Assembly: GCA_964016885.1 (NCBI GenBank)
Contig: OZ024740.1
Coordinates: forward strand, 389,174,001 to 389,238,000
Reading direction: 5' to 3'
Source of the DNA: Eledone cirrhosa
Lineage: Eukaryota
Length of the DNA stretch: 64,000 bases
Shown here: one piece after another, positions 54,231-64,000 of the stretch
How positions within the stretch are numbered: the stretch's first letter is position 1
How the letters are laid out: each line of letters begins with the position of its first letter
The notes under the pieces: model-generated
Told to the model about the DNA's origin: nothing
Seen by the model: the letters and a program-made list of their open reading frames with translations, nothing else
The model's database searches: none
Translations under genes and position numbers: made by a program

Positions 54231-56238
54231 ATGGCTACTTCACCTCTGCACGAAGCAGCTGAAAGCCTTCCTCACAAAATAACACCTCACACCGACACCA
54301 CCATTGTAAATGTTACTACGTTTGCCAACACAAAAAAAAATATAAGCAGTAGCAATATTTTTAATTTGTCTCAGGCAGACATTCATTTCCCGCCATTACC
54401 AATGACTGCAGGTGTTAAAGCCTCCACCACCACCACCACCGCGACAACCACCACCAACACCACCACCACCACCGCGACAACAGAAACAAAAGAAGAAAAA
54501 AATAAATTAACTCGTGATGTCGAAATGAAATCAAGCAAAATGGACTCTTCCCCACCAAAGACGACTGACGTCACCACCACCACAACTGAAACTAAAATTA
54601 ATATTAACGATAGCAACAACAACAACAATGACATTATAACCCCCCCCCCTCAGTTTCGCCAGAGTAGCAAAACAATTCGAAGCATTTACGGTAACTCAGG
54701 AAGATTTAGAAAATGCCAAACAAATGGTAAAGAAAGATGGGTACAGGGTCAGCCTCACCCCCACCCCCCACCCCCCAACCTAATAAAATGGAGCATCGGC
54801 GCCTATGCACCGTGTCGTATAGAACAATAAATGTAAAATCGCGCCGAGTGGAACGGGCATCCGAGTCCCAAATCCAAAAAGCTTTGGGACATGTGTGGGC
54901 AAGAAAAACCCACATCAGACGTGGGCAAAAGTATGGAACCGTGGACGTGTTCTTTGAAACACCAGAGGAGGCTAGAGAACACTCCATGGCCCCATTAAAA
55001 AGTGACGACTTCACACTCGTCCCAAGCTATTGTGGCCAGAGACTCGTAAAGATCAGGGTGACCCACGTTCCACCGGCCATCGAAATTCCCTGGCTAATAG
55101 CGGCCGTCCTCGCCGGCATCGAAGCCAACACGAAAATAATAGCAATAGCAAAAGAAAAGCAGGAAAACTGGTCCGGATCTGGGATGGAGCTCCTGATCCA
55201 AGCGGACCAAAAAAGCATTGAGGAGATCCCAGAGGTAATAGACCTCACTGACGGCAGCCACCTCACGGTAATTGTCGAGGGCAGAAGACCTAGGTGTGTC
55301 GTTTGTGGTGAAGGAACCCACCTAAGGGCTTTCTGCCCTCAGGCTAAAAGGTTGAGGCCACCTCTCCTACCCACCCCAGTGACACAACCATCAACACCAC
55401 CAGTAGCAGAGATGGCAGCAACAACTGTAGCAGCAACAACAGAAGCAACTATAACAGCAACAACCCCAGCAACAGTAGCAAAACCAACACCACCACCACC
55501 ACCAGCAAAACCAACACCACCACCACCCAACGCTTCAGAACTAGCACCGGCGCCTACACCATCCACCACGCCACAACCAAAACTAACGCCTGTGGAGGAT
55601 TTTCCACTCCCCGGCCTATCACAACTGGAGACAGATTGTGACGACGAGGAGTGGGAAACGATATCCGGAAAAAAAAAAAAAGAAACCAAAAAAGAAAAAA
55701 TTCTCTTCCTTCCCCCTCCAAAAACAAAATACAGAGGGAAACAAATAAATTAAGAAACAAAAAAGTTAGGACAGATATGCCACCATCCACACCAGCATCA
55801 CCAACCCCATCAACCCAAACACCAACACCATCACCATCATTAACTCCAACACCACCATCACCTACACCACAAAAGTCACCAAAATGCGAAACAGAAACAA
55901 ACCCACAACAAACGCAAACAAAACAAAACAACCAAAACGATACACACTACACAGCATTAAATTTGAACAACAAGCAATTATTACACTACATCCAACACAA
56001 CACCACCATCACAGAAAAAGACTACACAACAACCCCAAAATTCACACCACCTCCACACATACAAATCACTCGCATCACACAGAAAACGTACATGACACTA
56101 AAACAAAAATTCCCAAAAGACATCGGAGACTTCCGACAAGCACTCTCCAGGAGGATTTATAAGGACATCCTTCCTGAGGAGGCCACAAGCAGTGAAAAGG
56201 ATGGAAAAACCGTCCTTCCCCTACGAGAAGTAAGGTAA
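54231..56238 (+). pseudogene. LINE ORF1 (RRM-like + CCHC knuckle, Pro/Thr-rich), broken by three homopolymer frameshifts
   Basis: CVVCGEGTHLRAFC zinc knuckle; frame changes fall in C-runs (~54640, ~54770) and an A-run (~55670). Confidence 0.75.
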
Positions 56239-56272
56239 GTGGTCTTTCCCATCTTTTCCACTCCTTTTCAAC

Positions 56273-59200
56273 ATGACCTCACTCAGAATAGGCAGCATAA
56301 ATGCGCGTGGCTTGGGGTCGTCATGGAAGCAGGGCCACCTGCTCAACGACCTCAGGTCACTAAACATAGATGTAGTGGCCATCAGCGAGACCAGAATCTC
56401 TGAAGCACAGGCTTTCGCACCGATCTTCGGCGGCTACGATGTGTACGCATCTCCCAGCCGTCCGGGATCGGGGGGAGGAGTTGCTGTGCTTTTTCGGAGA
56501 GATTTGGATCTTGCCATACGGGCCATCTTCCTGGACCCAGAAGGTAAGTTGGTGGTGCTGGACGTGACCAGCGGAGACGGGCAAGTTTTCAGGTTAGTGG
56601 CCGTCTATGCCCCGACAGGAGCAGGGCGGCCTGATTTCTTCCGGCGTCTGGAGACCTTTCTTGGAACGTCCCGCTCTTTAGTGTTAGTGGGCGACTGTAA
56701 CGGGATCTTAGATGCACGCTGGGATTGTGTGGGATTAGTGGATAGGGAAGGAGGGTGCAAGAGTCTCACCAACCTGCTCAGACGTTTTGAACTGTCTGAC
56801 GGGTACCGAATGGATTTCCCGAATGTACCAATGTGGACTTGGACAAATCGCATAGGGTCATCCAGATCATATCTAGATAGAGTATTTTGTAGGGAAATAG
56901 ATAGGTCTAGCATAGGCTGTCCACAATTCAAGATAGTCAGCTACACGGACCACAAATTCGTGATCTGTGTGCTTAACTTAGATAGGCTTCATAGACGAGG
57001 ACCCGGCTACTGGAAGCTAAACGCGTCCTTACCAGCGCGCAAGGCCTACAGAGACCGGATTAGCGAACTAGTTAAGCGGGCGTTGACGGGGGCCATCGTC
57101 AACAACAAGTGGTGGTTTGCTCTGAAAAGAGCAATTAGAATAGAGTCCATTAGGTTTAGTAAGACTTTAGCAATAGAGAAAAATAGAGCAGAGGGAGAAT
57201 TAGTTAGAAAATTAGATGAGGCGCTTAGCAAAGGCATCGCGACCGGCGTACTTGCGGCGAAATTGGCCCTTGACCAATTCTTCAATGCAAAGCACGAAGG
57301 CTGCGTTGTCAGAGCTAGGGTGCGTGCTCTCAGACACGAGGGGACGAAAGCCGTTCAATGGGCCCGAGTGGCGGAGGCGCGTCGTGGCAACAAAGCCACG
57401 ATCCGGTCTTTGGTGGACCACGACGGGCGCATGCTACTCGATCCCGGGAAAATGTGTGAAGCTTTTCAGCGACACTTCGCTCAACTGTTCGGGGGAAGTG
57501 GCGGGCCGGATCGAGGGATGGACTTTAGTGTCTACCTCGACGGACTGCCGCGGCTTTCGGCCACTGAGGCGGAGTGTTGCGAAAAGCCGATAACAACCGC
57601 TGAAGTACGGGATGCAATGACTAGTTGCACAAGGGGTAAATCGCCTGGTTTGGATGGTCTGCCCTATGAACTTTACGTACAAATGCCAAACTTGTTCGGA
57701 GGCCTCTTGGCGGACGTCTACTGCAACTGGCAACAGAACGTGAGAATTCCCAGCTCTGTGAGCCGAGCAGCGGTGGCGCTGCTGAGAAAGGATCCGAACA
57801 AGGGGGATAACATAGATAATTTTAGGCCCATAACTCTGCTAAACACAGAGTTCAAGATTTTGGCCAAGGTGCTAGCAAAGAGGTTGGCGCTTCTCGTTGG
57901 TGGTCTGGTGGACGAGGCACAGACATGCGCCATTCCCGACAGATCCATCCACGACAACCTCCACCTCATGCGATACATCGTAGAGAGGGTAGCTAGGGAA
58001 CCTGGCACGGGTGGGTCTTTGATCAATTTAGATCAGTCGAAAGCCTTCGATAGGGTCGACCATCGTTACCTAGCGGCAGTCCTGAGGGCGGCTGGCTTTG
58101 GGCCCGTCTTCAGAGGCTGGATCGCTGCCATGCACAGCGACATCTGCTCTGTAGTGAGAGTGAACGGTCACCTTTCGGAACCGTTCAACATCATGCGCTC
58201 GGTCCGCCAAGGATGTCCCCTCTCGTCCCTATTGTACGTATTGACTCTCGAGCCATTACTGCACAAACTGGAGACGTTGAGGGGGGTCCCGCGCGAACTA
58301 GGATGCGGAAGATCCGTGTCAGCATATGCCGACGATGTCACCGTAGTGGTGTCGAACGCCAAACACATCGAGGCGATCGGCACTACACTAAGAGAATACG
58401 AAGCGGTGACAGGAGCAATGATCAACCAGGAAAAGTCAGTGGGCCTGCAGCTCGGCACCTGGAGAGGCAGGTCCATGCCGTCCAACAGCGTCGTCGGGCG
58501 CTGGACGGACGGACCGGTTAAATTGCTAGGGGTCTGGTTCGGTCCAGACCTCCAGACGGACAAAAACTGGGACGAGGTGACGAGCAGGGTGGCTTCTCTC
58601 ACCCAGAAATGGGCCGAGAGGAAGCTATCCCTGAAAGGTCGAGCGGAGGTGGCGAATGCGTACATCGCATCCGTCATCTACTACCGCCTGACCGTCGTAC
58701 CTTGTCCTAAGCCCCGCCTGACTGCGCTGGAGCGTTTGCTCTTTCGCTTCTTGTGGAAGGGACGCGCTCCGATGGTCAGGCGGTTCATCTGCTGTCAACA
58801 CCCGCTACGTGGAGGGCTGGGCATGCCGTGGCTGATGATGCGCAGACACGCGCTCGGGCTACGACATCTCCACCTCTTCCTCGACGGTGATCAGGTGTGG
58901 TCGCCGTTTGCGAGACACGTTTTTCCCCAGCTCGTCTCCTTGACGGAGCTGCAGTCCTGGGTCAAGCGAAGACCGAGAGGGAGCGCTTGGAGACTGGAAT
59001 GTCTTCAGGCGCTCACAGCCCTCGACCAATCGGGCAATGTGATCGGTGGAAACTCCACCTTGGCGTTCTATAGGGGATTAGTGGAGGGGAAGAGCGACGA
59101 CGTACTTGGAGAAACTCTAGGCGTCGACGAAAATCAACTAGCCAATCTCTTCGGAAGGACTTTCGGGCCGGGGCCTATGGACAACTTCCAGAAATCCCTG

Positions 59201-59692
59201 GCCTGGCAGTGCTACCGAGGAGCTTTGCCAGTTCGGGATAAACTCTACAGGCATGGAGGTGCCGTCAGCCGGGCATGTCCGAGATGCGCGCAGGGCGACG
59301 AAACCGTCCTGCACGCACTCGTCCAGTGTCCGAGCATTGCTGACTTGTGGGTTTATGTCGAACACCTGCTGTCACGTGTAGGACGGATCCAGCTATCAGC
59401 TGAGTCCATCGTGAGGATTGCCCCGCTCCCTTCCTTTAGCCGGGAAGGGCAGGCAGTTTTTATCTGTCTGGTGGCCATGGCGAAAGAGATAGTATGGTGG
59501 ACACGTTTGAAAGGGCTGAAGACGAGCACTTACCTCTTCGGTGATGCCCTGATTAACTTTTTCAAATTTCATTTGAAAAGGAAAATCAGGGTAGAGAGGG
59601 AAGTGCTCTCTTCCCAGCATTTTGTTGAAAGATGGGTGAGAGAAGCAAGTATGGCCCGAATGAATGGGCCTTCTCTGAGTAATTGTCTGTAA
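56273..59692 (+). CDS. LINE ORF2: APE endonuclease - reverse transcriptase - C-terminal zinc finger (1139 aa)
   Basis: INARGL, ISETR, VYAP, GDCN, YLDR, TDH (APE); KSPGLDGL, FRPITLLN, DQSKAFD, RQGCPLS, YADD (RT); CPRC..ETVLHALVQC. Confidence 0.97.
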   Translation: MTSLRIGSINARGLGSSWKQGHLLNDLRSLNIDVVAISETRISEAQAFAPIFGGYDVYASPSRPGSGGGVAVLFRRDLDLAIRAIFLDPEGKLVVLDVTSGDGQVFRLVAVYAPTGAGRPDFFRRLETFLGTSRSLVLVGDCNGILDARWDCVGLVDREGGCKSLTNLLRRFELSDGYRMDFPNVPMWTWTNRIGSSRSYLDRVFCREIDRSSIGCPQFKIVSYTDHKFVICVLNLDRLHRRGPGYWKLNASLPARKAYRDRISELVKRALTGAIVNNKWWFALKRAIRIESIRFSKTLAIEKNRAEGELVRKLDEALSKGIATGVLAAKLALDQFFNAKHEGCVVRARVRALRHEGTKAVQWARVAEARRGNKATIRSLVDHDGRMLLDPGKMCEAFQRHFAQLFGGSGGPDRGMDFSVYLDGLPRLSATEAECCEKPITTAEVRDAMTSCTRGKSPGLDGLPYELYVQMPNLFGGLLADVYCNWQQNVRIPSSVSRAAVALLRKDPNKGDNIDNFRPITLLNTEFKILAKVLAKRLALLVGGLVDEAQTCAIPDRSIHDNLHLMRYIVERVAREPGTGGSLINLDQSKAFDRVDHRYLAAVLRAAGFGPVFRGWIAAMHSDICSVVRVNGHLSEPFNIMRSVRQGCPLSSLLYVLTLEPLLHKLETLRGVPRELGCGRSVSAYADDVTVVVSNAKHIEAIGTTLREYEAVTGAMINQEKSVGLQLGTWRGRSMPSNSVVGRWTDGPVKLLGVWFGPDLQTDKNWDEVTSRVASLTQKWAERKLSLKGRAEVANAYIASVIYYRLTVVPCPKPRLTALERLLFRFLWKGRAPMVRRFICCQHPLRGGLGMPWLMMRRHALGLRHLHLFLDGDQVWSPFARHVFPQLVSLTELQSWVKRRPRGSAWRLECLQALTALDQSGNVIGGNSTLAFYRGLVEGKSDDVLGETLGVDENQLANLFGRTFGPGPMDNFQKSLAWQCYRGALPVRDKLYRHGGAVSRACPRCAQGDETVLHALVQCPSIADLWVYVEHLLSRVGRIQLSAESIVRIAPLPSFSREGQAVFICLVAMAKEIVWWTRLKGLKTSTYLFGDALINFFKFHLKRKIRVEREVLSSQHFVERWVREASMARMNGPSLSNCL

Positions 59693-60196: not shown

Positions 60197-62199
60197 ATTT
60201 ATCATTATTTTTTTTTTTTTTTTCTCGTGCAATGGCCATACTCGATAACGAGGGGGCAGCCATCATGTATGTATGTATGTATGTGTGTGTGCGCGTGTGT
60301 GTGTGCGTGTGTGTGTTTGTATGTATGTGTGTATCGACACACTCTCTCAAACTAGAATATATAAATGTAAACATGATAGTTAGGAAATGTCAAAGAAATC
60401 TAAAATAAAAATAGGAGAGATTGTATGGTATAAATAAACAAACTAGCAAGGCACCAGTAAATCAATTACCACAAAACCGATGTAATAACACCATGGAAAC
60501 TATTTCCAGATTTCCTTTCTTTTTATAAACATAGCATACGTCTCTCTTCAAATTACATAAACAAAAATAAATACTAATTGTTCTTTTAGCCCCAGGTCAC
60601 TGGCCGCTAAACGAAATATTAACAGCAGTAAACTCCTACGTTAAAAGAACGTTTTTCCATTTTAAAGTGGAATTAAATAGTTTAATAAGTATTTGGCTTC
60701 TAATTCTAGCAAATACAACCACAATACTAAGGCCGTCTCGTTAGGTAGAACACTATCCATACCAGTCGGTCAACAGGAACAGTCAATTCCACATTCACGT
60801 AAAAAACAACAGTAAATTCAATTAGTCCAAAACACTGTACTGAGCAAAAGAACAACAGTTGTCATGCTCCGACCGAGAGCATGTGGTTTGGCTCCACCGT
60901 GCCCACCACCAGGAACTAACAAGAAGTATGCAGCATGTTCAGATTGTCACATTATGTCAGAGTAACCAGTATGATTCTTAGCCAAGCGTTATGGCACTGC
61001 TCAATTTGTTTGTGGACCAACGTAGTAGCCACCATGTTGACTGTTGACCGTCTAGAGATAGCAGTCAAATTCTCTCTCACATCACTCACTGTCGCGTTGA
61101 ATAATGCATTCCTTGATTTCCTGCACATAGGAAAATGGTGGAATGGTTACGGCTGACATGTCTTTGATCAAAGATCTGCAGTAACAGAGCTGATCTGAAG
61201 CTAAACAACACAACAAGGCTGTGATGAAACAACAATTATTGCAATGATTCAACTTGTAACTTTTTTTATACCTGCCTTTGTTTCTAGCTTTTGTTTTTAT
61301 CTTATTTATGCTTCTTTTACCTCTCTCTCTCCCTCTCCCTCTCTTGTTTTTGTTTCTTAACTTTAAAACTGTAAAATGTACAAGATGCCTCCTCTATTCT
61401 GCCACAGCACACTAGCTCTATACGGACGTTTGAGTGGAATAAATAAATAAATAAATAAATAAGTTTCATCAAAAGAAAACTATTATCTCGAACCTATTCC
61501 ATTTCAGTACTTCTATATGTTTGTTCGATCAGCAACCAAAACACCACCAAATCACACTCTATTGTCTTAAATAGGGAAAGTACAAATTACACAAGCAATC
61601 ATCAATCATCTCTCTTCTTAACCCGTAACACTCGAGTGAATGTTAGGGGGTGCCATATTGACATATGGCGTTTCTGGGGCATTTTGAAACCTAGCGCAGC
61701 CCATCTCTCCATGTTTGAGTGCAGCAGATTTCTTCGAGGCGAGGATAAGGAGTGAGAGTATGGAAGTAAGAAAGAGATATAGAGCAAGAATCAATCCCAG
61801 TATTAGACTGGTACATTTTTTTTATAGACCTTAAATGGACGAAAGCAAAGTCGACCTCAGCAGGATTTGAACTGAGGGAGCAAAGAATTGGAACGAATAC
61901 TGCAAAGCATTCTATCCGACGTTCTAACGAGACTCCCAATTCACGGTCTCTGAGTGTAAATCTACTGAATCGAATACACTAGGGCGGGGGATAAATAAAA
62001 AGGGTAATTTTTTTACTATTACTCTTGTTTCGCTTTGGAAGTGAAATTTATGTTTTCGGCACTACCATGCTATTAGCTGTCAGAAGTGAAAGTTTCGTCA
62101 ACCTTCTCAATCGTAAACATTGTTTATTTCCGTATTACCACGCATTATTTTAATAAAGCATATCGATGTAAGTGGAGTTACTTAAATGAAAATATAGGT

Positions 62200-62215
62200 G
62201 GCCCTTAAAAGGGCC
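62200..62215 (-). other. Histone mRNA 3' stem-loop motif (left TIR)
   Basis: Minus strand GGCCCT-TTTA-AGGGCC followed by ACC; matches consensus GGYYYU-UYUN-ARRRCC. Confidence 0.7.
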
Positions 62216-62367
62216 AAATTAGAAAACAAATTAAGTTAATTAGAAAACAAGTCATGGTTATCAAATAAATTGGATTTAATCATTTATATTTTCATAGTCA
62301 TGGTTATCAATGTAGAAAACAAGTAATTTTCACCAACAGTGGAGTTAACTTAAATGAAAATATTGGT

Positions 62368-62383
62368 GGCCCTTAAAAGGGCC
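62368..62383 (-). other. Histone mRNA 3' stem-loop motif (internal copy)
   Basis: Same 16-mer followed by ACCAA. Confidence 0.7.
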
Positions 62384-62536
62384 AAATTAGAAAACAAATA
62401 TATGGTTATCAAATTTTTTTCACCAACCCTATACATGAAATTGATAACCATGACTATGAAAATATAAATGATTAAATCCAATTTATTTGATAACCATGAC
62501 TTGTTTTCTAATTAACTTAAATTTGTTTACTAATTT

Positions 62537-62552
62537 GGCCCTTTTAAGGGCC
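62537..62552 (+). other. Histone mRNA 3' stem-loop motif (right TIR)
   Basis: GGCCCTTTTAAGGGCC-ACC on plus strand. Confidence 0.7.
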
Positions 62553-63159
62553 ACCTATATTTTCATTTAAGTAACTCCACTTACATCGATATGCTTTATT
62601 AAAATAACGCGTGGTAATACGGAAATAAATGATGTTTACGATTGAGAAGGTTGACGAAACTTTCACTTCTGACAGCTAATAGCATGGTAGTGCCATGTGT
62701 TTTGAACGAATATGTCCTTCGAAACGTCGGAATTTTTTTTTTTTCCTTGTAGTTAGTGGCGGGAGTAGACACTTGGAGTTGACAAGCTTTGAAGGTGAAT
62801 ATTACATCCGTCTCGCTTTGGAAGTAAATATTATTGTTGTTGTTGTTTTATTTGTTTTGTTTTGTTATTTTGTATTTTGAACGAATCTAACTATCAAAAC
62901 TGTCGGAAAGTATTCGTTCTTAGTTAACAGAGGGGTATTAAGTGTAACATTTACCTCCAAGCCTTAGAACTCAGAGATTGACACCACCCCACCCCGTTAA
63001 CTAAAAAATGAATAATTTCCGACAATTTTAATGGTCAGATTCGTTCAAAACACATCAAATACAATAGGTAAACAAATTTCACCTCCAAACCGTGTCTGAT
63101 TAACAATAAAAATTTACCAGAAAAAAAGTTGTATGATGAACAAGTTACAGCACGCACAC

Positions 63160-64000
63160 ATAAAGATTTTAAAATAAAGCAGAGGACAACTCGTTCGTAA
63201 AACAATTCTTCTTCTCCCGTTTGCCAACAAATGTGCAAACCATACTGGCAAATATAGTCGACACCAGTTCTCTGGACCAAATTGCAGCCTCAGCGGACTG
63301 CATAATGGAATTTTCTCGAGTACCTACTTCGGCAGATCCACACATTGCTTCTTCTACTTTTAAAGCACAGCCTATTCCACCTCGTGAGGACTCTATATTG
63401 AGAGCCATTGACGCGCTAACTCGTCAAGTGACTAAACTGTGTCGGGAACGAACACATTCCAGATGGCGTCCACGAAGTCGTTCTACTTCTTTTCATCGTC
63501 GCGCCAAAACCCCCGCCAACAACTCGTCTTTATGTTGGTATCACGTGCGTTTTCGTGAAAAGGCGAATCATTGTATTCAACCCTGCTCTTTCGGGACTTC
63601 GGAAAACTAAACCTGGAGAATCTGGGCGCGGCAGATCTCTCCACCATTAATTTTCCTTATCGTGCCTTTTTCATAAAAGATCGAATTTCAAACAAATCGT
63701 TTATGGTCGACACAGGATCTAGTTGCAGTATTTGGCCCCTTCGTTTCAGCTGTACCAAGCCAAATTTTTCCGGTATTTCCTTGTATGCAATAAACCAGTC
63801 TCCTATAAAAACTTATGGACAAATATCTCTATCATTGGACCTAGTTTTGCGTCGGGATTTCAAATGGATTTTCGTTGTAGCAGACCTACCCCACCCTATT
63901 CTCGGTGCGGATTTTTTACACCAGTACTCACTGTTAGTAGATGTCAGGAAACAGAAAGTTGTGGATGGCACCACATCTTTATCTACACCTGCTCATAGTT
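63160..64000 (+). mobile_element. Ty3/Gypsy LTR retrotransposon internal region: gag C-terminus and protease (continues past window)
   Basis: Gag LPTNVQTIL..ADCIME..CWYHVRF..KANHCIQPC, stop at 63610; -1 frame open to window end with FMVDTGS, IKTYG and PILGADFL aspartic protease motifs. No LTR seen upstream. Confidence 0.9.
63601..63643 (+). promoter_or_regulatory. -1 programmed ribosomal frameshift signal (gag-pol)
   Basis: G GAA AAC immediately before gag TAA; 6-nt spacer; hairpin TGGAGA-ATCTG(ggcgcgg)CAGAT-c-TCTCCA. Confidence 0.7.

Follow-up and report, generated by a model that had tools for sequence, protein, structure and literature searches.

A Merlin miniature element of Eledone cirrhosa with stem-loops copied from a host histone H4 gene, and likely recurrent co-option of histone 3'-end processing by Merlin transposons

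The histone stem-loop is the SLBP/U7 element that ends replication-dependent histone mRNAs, which are not polyadenylated. It has generally been held to be exclusive to those mRNAs (PMC1924863, in the text available). A transposon with a histone hairpin is nevertheless already known as a kind: Tm1-HH elements of root-knot nematodes are non-autonomous Mutator/Foldback transposons that carry such a hairpin, with its function left open, and for which Pack-MULE-like capture has been proposed (Gross and Williamson, 2011, PMC3169594, in the parts accessible). The same text describes the hairpin only in non-coding elements and leaves the source gene unnamed. Tm1-HH is the sole transposon with a histone hairpin among the literature matches listed, Repbase, Dfam and subscription journals lying outside that scope.

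The Merlin superfamily, to which the element described here belongs, is related to IS1595/IS1016. The accessible sections of PMC8101967 give its characters as GG termini, 8-bp target duplications, an IS1595 transposase of ~300 aa and inverted repeats of 24-462 bp; the present family has the same termini and duplications, such a transposase in its parent, and repeats inside that range. The present family also has a captured histone 3' end, enrichment at histone loci and composites of 25-28 kb, to which those sections make no reference. Octopus repeat annotation includes Merlin, and histones are unmentioned in the portion of that source available (PMC13282606). Like Tm1-HH, the element in our window (the whole 64,000-nucleotide stretch of Eledone cirrhosa DNA analysed) is a non-autonomous DNA transposon with a histone hairpin; it is of another superfamily, and where a Tm1-HH element would have a Mutator transposase, a 9-bp duplication and Tm1 repeats, its family has a Merlin transposase and 8-bp duplications. 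The Merlin case goes beyond Tm1-HH in that the H4 source and intermediates can be traced, and in that a hairpin is placed behind the transposase stop both in the parent and among distant relatives. Hairpins behind transposase stops, a traced source gene and a Merlin bias for histone loci are not reported among the literature matches listed (Repbase and Dfam outside scope).

The miniature element (MITE) is 637 bp long, of Merlin type, gene-less and GG-ended; its arms are 98% complementary and, with one gap, can be extended to ~254 nt. Its features are as follows.

62050..62057 (+): left copy of a degenerate 8-bp target duplication, equal to the right copy at 6/8 bases
62058..62694 (no strand): non-autonomous Merlin element (MITE), composed of shuffled pieces of its parent's ends
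62058..62232 (+): left inverted arm, reaching ~62311 with one gap
62152..62215 (-): H4-derived block, 0 to +64, outward-pointing; stem-loop 62200-62215 (RF00032) and downstream sequence
62338..62383 (-): shorter H4-derived block, 0 to +45, with stem-loop 62368-62383 (Rfam); the version found at the parent's 5' end
62520..62694 (-): right inverted arm, reaching ~62440; 4 differences from the left arm in 175 nt
62522..62536 (+): Merlin subterminal motif, source of the U-rich 5' flank that replaces the H4 gene's own A/C-rich flank
62537..62600 (+): H4-derived block, 0 to +64, with stem-loop 62537-62552; the copy found after the transposase stop in the parent
62695..62702 (+): right copy of the target duplication, equal to the left copy at 6/8 bases

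An earlier, sequence-only reading had noticed three exact 16-mers, each followed by ACC, and these are present at 62200-62215 (-), 62368-62383 (-) and 62537-62552 (+), with 0.01 expected by chance. Its identification of them as true histone stem-loops is upheld, since all three reach the gathering score of Rfam RF00032 (Histone3), at 34, 38.2 and 34 bits; the 6-bp stem, 4-nt loop, G2-C pair, U at loop position 3 and ACC 3' flank of histone ends are all found. It was also right that no histone ORF is nearby (no H2A, H2B, H3 or H4 motif occurs in the window) and that the 5' flank is not A/C-rich, UUU standing beside the hairpin in the Merlin copy. The hairpins were placed in both terminal inverted repeats (TIRs), which holds for the outer two; the one in the middle is left over from the 5'-end block of the parent. 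Two further claims fared worse. That the 16-mer is unmutated although the TIRs differ carries no weight, because the arms differ at 4/175 sites and an untouched 16-mer has a probability of 0.69; and where no clear U7 downstream element had been seen, the host H4 gene's own downstream sequence is present as a candidate. The MITE is without an ORF, and in this gene-less copy the hairpins are likely passengers. Genome-wide there are 608 exact copies of the hairpin plus ACC (a 19-mer) and 403 exact 26-nt family ends.

Other mobile DNA surrounds the MITE. It interrupts a further element with inverted repeats, parts of which lie at 62017-62051 and 62695-63092 (repeat pairs 62871-62921/63004-63054 and 62695-62724/63026-63055). 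Open frames of 340 and 1152 aa occupy 54731-59690 (+) and resemble a LINE ORF1/ORF2 pair, and 63100-64000 (+) reads by eye as retrotransposon gag/protease-like sequence.

Membership in Merlin, which had been proposed, is borne out by GG-starting TIRs, by duplications of 8 bp (8-9 bp being the Merlin character) and by autonomous copies that share these ends and encode a DDE_Tnp_IS1595 transposase. The parent transposase, of 300 aa, is encoded in loci with paired hairpins ~1.25 kb apart; one representative (P0001) matches Pfam PF12762 (E 1.4e-19), residues D152, D213 and E250 are conserved in the transposase alignment, and the nearest named relatives are Octopus proteins (62-85%). One locus (L065) has both ends and the target duplication, and 14 of the 20 two-ended family copies are flanked by an 8-bp duplication that has no more than one mismatch, the window copy matching at 6/8. 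In the 19 family loci obtained by Pfam search, the hairpin lies in sense orientation behind the transposase stop at 21/21 transposase 3' ends, as had been anticipated for the parent, and in antisense orientation at 15/18 parent 5' ends. The distance from stop to hairpin is 115-137 nt in 18/20 segments, rising to 287 nt with insertions; AATAAA lies 44-66 nt upstream of the hairpin in 18/20 parent 3' regions, and in the sense copy a 1-nt deletion distinguishes the downstream block from that of H4.

Merlin ends also bound six giant elements of 25-28 kb (L245-L262), at G000:C1:155773155-155798795, C2:36344524-36369827, C1:72240579-72267247, C1:304002453-304030870, C2:101129692-101155195 and C1:5550636-5578734. 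All six fetched have 8-bp target duplications, one of them within a TA run, and they share a cargo of LINE debris and low-complexity DNA, with a transposase cassette at one end in 2/6. Other Merlin end pairs lie 18-59 kb apart. The 13-nt Merlin end motif has 81,001 exact matches genome-wide, 72,024 of them on one strand, and ~0.3 per Mb on contig C1; the excess is probably a large satellite containing the motif.

The host histone genes form dispersed divergent H3-H4 and H2A-H2B pairs in ~15 small clusters (L228-L244, L283-L327). One of 12 intact H4 genes matches the MITE at 63/65 columns, counted from the first G of the stem. Within the window, the block at 62152..62215 is identical to the H4 gene of L087/L174/L232 at 63/65 columns, and that at 62338..62383 is identical to the H4 gene at 44/46. 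The block is native to H4, because paralogous H4 genes carry it in graded, diverged form, and it extends past the mature mRNA, which implies capture from DNA. These alignments identify the MITE hairpins as copied from the 3' end of a single host H4 gene, in pieces of 46-65 nt. Host H4 and H3 genes were among 29 sites recovered with a TTTC-loop variant. A full-length sister Merlin (L139; 82% at the amino acid level) has the same ends and subterminal motifs, including the motif of 62522..62536, and neither hairpin nor H4 block; the hairpin is likewise absent from 49/49 loci of other Merlin families (70 of 150 Pfam matches examined).

Intermediates of the capture are present in the genome. A sister-type family carrying H4 flank from +28 to +599, without the hairpin, has been amplified; its extra pieces match elsewhere in the same H4 cluster, and 5/19 loci have perfect 8-bp duplications. 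A second group consists of MITEs with the native H4 flank from -7, in whose loci (30 fetched of 146 matches) a transposase is absent. Altogether, the derivatives hold at least 600 bp of one H4 gene's flank in several overlapping pieces, and the capture junctions show microhomology. Gap repair is a mechanism of Pack-MULE-type capture, and the H4 flank may have been copied in by template switching during gap repair of an element at the H4 locus. The amplified lineage kept only the stem-loop and 45-64 nt, which spread to both ends and into MITEs. Patchwork host DNA in a class II element and joins at microhomology are shared with Pack-MULE capture (as cited in PMC3169594, in the part available); unlike in Pack-MULEs, what was kept is a signal for RNA processing, and it entered a lineage with a transposase.

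Two local expansions of native-flank sequence were also observed. Copies of a 620-bp MITE subfamily, whose native-flank hairpins stand back to back, are found mostly on a single contig (G000:C18:4.9-12.7 Mb; L442-L458), where they have spread inside a larger duplicated unit, since several share flanks. Secondly, a 32-50 kb tandem macro-repeat of at least 36 units (G000:C28:124.69-126.05 Mb and beyond; L459-L465, L098) has, in every unit, a 28S rRNA 3' fragment followed ~410 nt later by a piece of the H4 hairpin that is Merlin-derived and keeps its native flank.

Merlin-family sequence beyond the H4 block was found in 4/16 H4-centred 10-kb stretches, four of the 16 being centred on pseudogene fragments and some being neighbours in one cluster, compared with 0/20 control stretches taken ~1 Mb away (Fisher p 0.031); L242, which was found through its hairpin, was left out of this count. 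Only 1/79 loci fetched for other reasons had family sequence. The density of the family is ~62 loci in 322 Mb, from a hand count over the first 100 matches of the end motif, and at a fivefold density the probability of four positives would still be 2e-5. One family element lies inside an H2A 3' UTR, 18 nt after the stop, another lies 61 nt behind an H3 hairpin, and in follow-up stretches, outside the enrichment count, further copies flank H2A-H2B pairs. The hairpin of L077 is that of H2A, not of H1. Insertions are carried by 5 of the ~15 histone clusters seen and represent ~1% of family loci: the family shows a bias, not strict targeting, for histone loci. This bias may predate the capture, because one histone-locus insertion is of the hairpin-less sister type, and it is a plausible route to the capture of H4 sequence.

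Whether the acquired hairpin would work as an mRNA end in this family has to be judged against the host's own histone ends. Both have the stem, the loop, ACC and the H4 downstream sequence (RF00032; SLBP, U7 snRNP), and the TTTA loop of the Merlin hairpin is also used by host histone genes. The Merlin hairpin is unlike histone ends in lacking a histone ORF, in its U-rich flank and predicted seventh pair, in lying 115-137 nt from the stop and in having AATAAA upstream. An A at -3 is found in 45/46 distinct host histone ends against UUU in the Merlin copy, and the seventh pair (U-A) predicted there, between -1 and +1, is possible in 0/46 host ends. Full SLBP affinity needs two 5' adenines according to PMC10388802 (text available in part), while host H4 ends with CACC flanks indicate some latitude in the 5' flank. 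Host hairpins lie at a median of 30 nt from the stop (range 18-114, one H4 at 114 nt); the metazoan median is likewise 30 nt, and 25-60 nt is critical for regulated stability and decay (bioRxiv 2026.10.14.759114, accessible portion), a span that the sense hairpin of the parent misses. Downstream of the hairpin, the Merlin sequence is that of host H4 save for the 1-nt deletion of the sense copy. The idea that this is a good SLBP site is not supported, given the flank, the extra base pair and the upstream AATAAA. Instead of a purine-rich block, the sequence downstream of host histone hairpins contains an AAGT-like core (+15 to +21); no host U7 scored above the Rfam cut-off in the genome search, and one sub-threshold candidate was set aside, its 5' end misfitting the host downstream consensus by eye.

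Selective conservation of the 16-mer within the family, which had also been supposed, did not emerge. Mismatches occur at 43/1696 hairpin sites (2.5%) and 37/1512 downstream-flank sites (2.4%), a weak test in that copies decay neutrally after insertion; 72/106 hairpin copies are perfect in 47 loci not chosen for the hairpin. Loci found via a perfect hairpin (L029-L070) were excluded from the selection tests. One fixed substitution falls in the hairpin, at the variable fourth loop position, where neutrality predicts 0.5. In favour of function are the sense placement in every parent, the retention of exactly the hairpin and downstream block, and the TTTA loop shared with host histone genes. Use of the hairpin as an mRNA end by the parent in this genome is rated as doubtful, because the site is degraded.

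A different picture is given by distant Merlins. Of the 191 metagenome loci, from other organisms, that matched a 20-transposase alignment, 80 were fetched, and a strict hairpin pattern had 8 matches in their 181,096 bases, compared with a mean of 0.05 and a maximum of 1 in 100 shuffles. All eight are sense, single in their locus and 19-114 nt behind a stop codon, in agreement with the expectation that loop and strand should be kept in related families. Four lie behind transposases that share 32-44% identity with one another, at 50, 53, 84 and 114 nt from the stop; neither AATAAA nor ATTAAA intervenes between stop and hairpin in these 4/4 cases, and element ends were not found for them. With enough 3' sequence at hand, a hairpin follows the transposase in 4/64 loci, or 4/27 clusters, and 60/64 are without one. 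The other four lie 19-41 nt after a second ORF (125 aa) in one related group, divergent in three and tandem in one; in L401, 27-nt GG-ended inverted repeats enclose both genes and the hairpin, and L392 has a fifth homologue of this ORF without a hairpin. Loci with a second ORF of ~125 aa are L390, L392, L398, L401, L416 and L369; it has no Pfam match over the cut-off and no usable Atlas match, and 27 unnamed relatives.

The distant hairpins are diverse. Their stems differ by two-sided changes, perfect pairing being imposed by the search pattern, and an AAA-led 5' flank occurs in L349, L358, L369, L390 and L416. The CTTT loop of L349 is that of the C. elegans histone hairpin (PMC1924863, available text). 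Rfam lists 7/8 of them (L365 is omitted), 1/8 at gathering score; a relaxed pattern added no sense match and one non-canonical antisense match, and no histone motif was found in any of the 80 loci. In a quick tree of 79 transposases, hairpin-bearing rows stand on separate branches beside hairpin-less ones. No Merlin relatives were found in the viral or prokaryote collections searched; viral contigs gave 7 matches to the hairpin pattern. It is rather probable, from the placement of these hairpins, that at least some distant Merlin families use them as histone-type mRNA ends.

This genome also has two Helitron families, with 63% identity across the helicase end, that carry host-type sense hairpins behind the helicase gene. 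The hairpins follow the helicase match by ~280 nt or by 430-740 nt, ahead of the canonical hairpin-CTAG end; the flank is A/C-rich in one family, and in the other the hairpins come in tandem units whose loops are CTTY or TTTC. Among 30 PIF1 loci found without regard to the hairpin, 29 are without it.

L071, L072, L075, L078-L082, L084, L085, L096, L219; L083, L090; L074: Helitron loci with hairpin

We lean towards reading the MITE as a Merlin with H4-derived passenger hairpins, and towards a likely role as histone-type mRNA end for the hairpin that stands behind the transposase gene in the parent and in distant Merlins. A Merlin lineage over-represented at histone loci would have had the chance to take H4 flank. 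A sense hairpin behind the stop would direct cleavage 4-5 nt after the stem, the resulting message would be non-polyadenylated, SLBP/U7-processed and S-phase- and oocyte-biased, and this replication bias would favour a cut-and-paste element, which gains copies during replication. Such an advantage would explain the same hairpin placement in unrelated Merlins. Recurrent co-option of histone 3'-end processing by Merlins appears likely on this comparative evidence. The fuller proposal, that Merlins and a Helitron clade repeatedly hijack the SLBP/U7 pathway in a series from histone-locus bias through capture to S-phase- or oocyte-timed transposition, with the family here caught mid-capture, is offered tentatively, as somewhat short of probable.

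The alternative that survives best is passenger capture everywhere, in which the hairpin rides with flanking DNA and has no RNA function in any Merlin family. The lack of excess conservation, the degraded flank and the upstream AATAAA all agree with it, as do the antisense, half and deleted hairpin copies that are common in the family, the free uptake of host DNA up to 25-28 kb and the amplification of the hairpin-less H4-flank family. Passengers should land anywhere, however, and the distant hairpins are 8/8 sense, single and close behind a stop, in loci without histone coding sequence or an intervening poly(A) signal; we regard this explanation as unlikely, while giving it appreciable weight. 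It is improbable that the outward hairpins terminate sense and antisense read-through at both ends, lowering double-stranded RNA or host damage, a role at both ends having been one suggestion of the sequence-only reading. Hairpins point outward at either end in most parents, and outward too in the back-to-back MITE subfamily, which fits such terminators, but the 5' copy is missing in 3/18 parents, the far end is without a hairpin in 3/6 giant copies with target duplications, distant Merlins have one hairpin only, and the symmetry follows from end-to-end copying.

Very little probability attaches to the 16-mer being a palindromic DNA site of the transposase that resembles a histone end by chance: it does lie at the inner edge of both inverted repeats, yet it is accompanied by 49 nt of H4 downstream sequence, and hairpin-less sisters, and giant copies without a hairpin at one end, have transposed with 8-bp duplications, so that this reading is largely refuted. 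That Merlin gave the block to the H4 gene, as the far greater closeness of one H4 gene than of its paralogues to the Merlin block might suggest, is scarcely credible given the diverged block in paralogous H4 genes, the sister Merlin without it and the absence of any Merlin end within 10 kb around the source H4 gene.

If, as we favour, transposases of this superfamily use the stem-loop, mobile DNA would have its activity tied directly to DNA replication, outside the poly(A) pathway, and such transposase messages would escape RNA-seq of poly(A)-selected libraries. The hundreds of dispersed hairpins (the 608 exact 19-mers) confound histone-gene and Rfam annotation. Whatever the function of the hairpin, a histone-locus-biased DNA transposon with capture from one gene is a clean model for the capture of host sequence.
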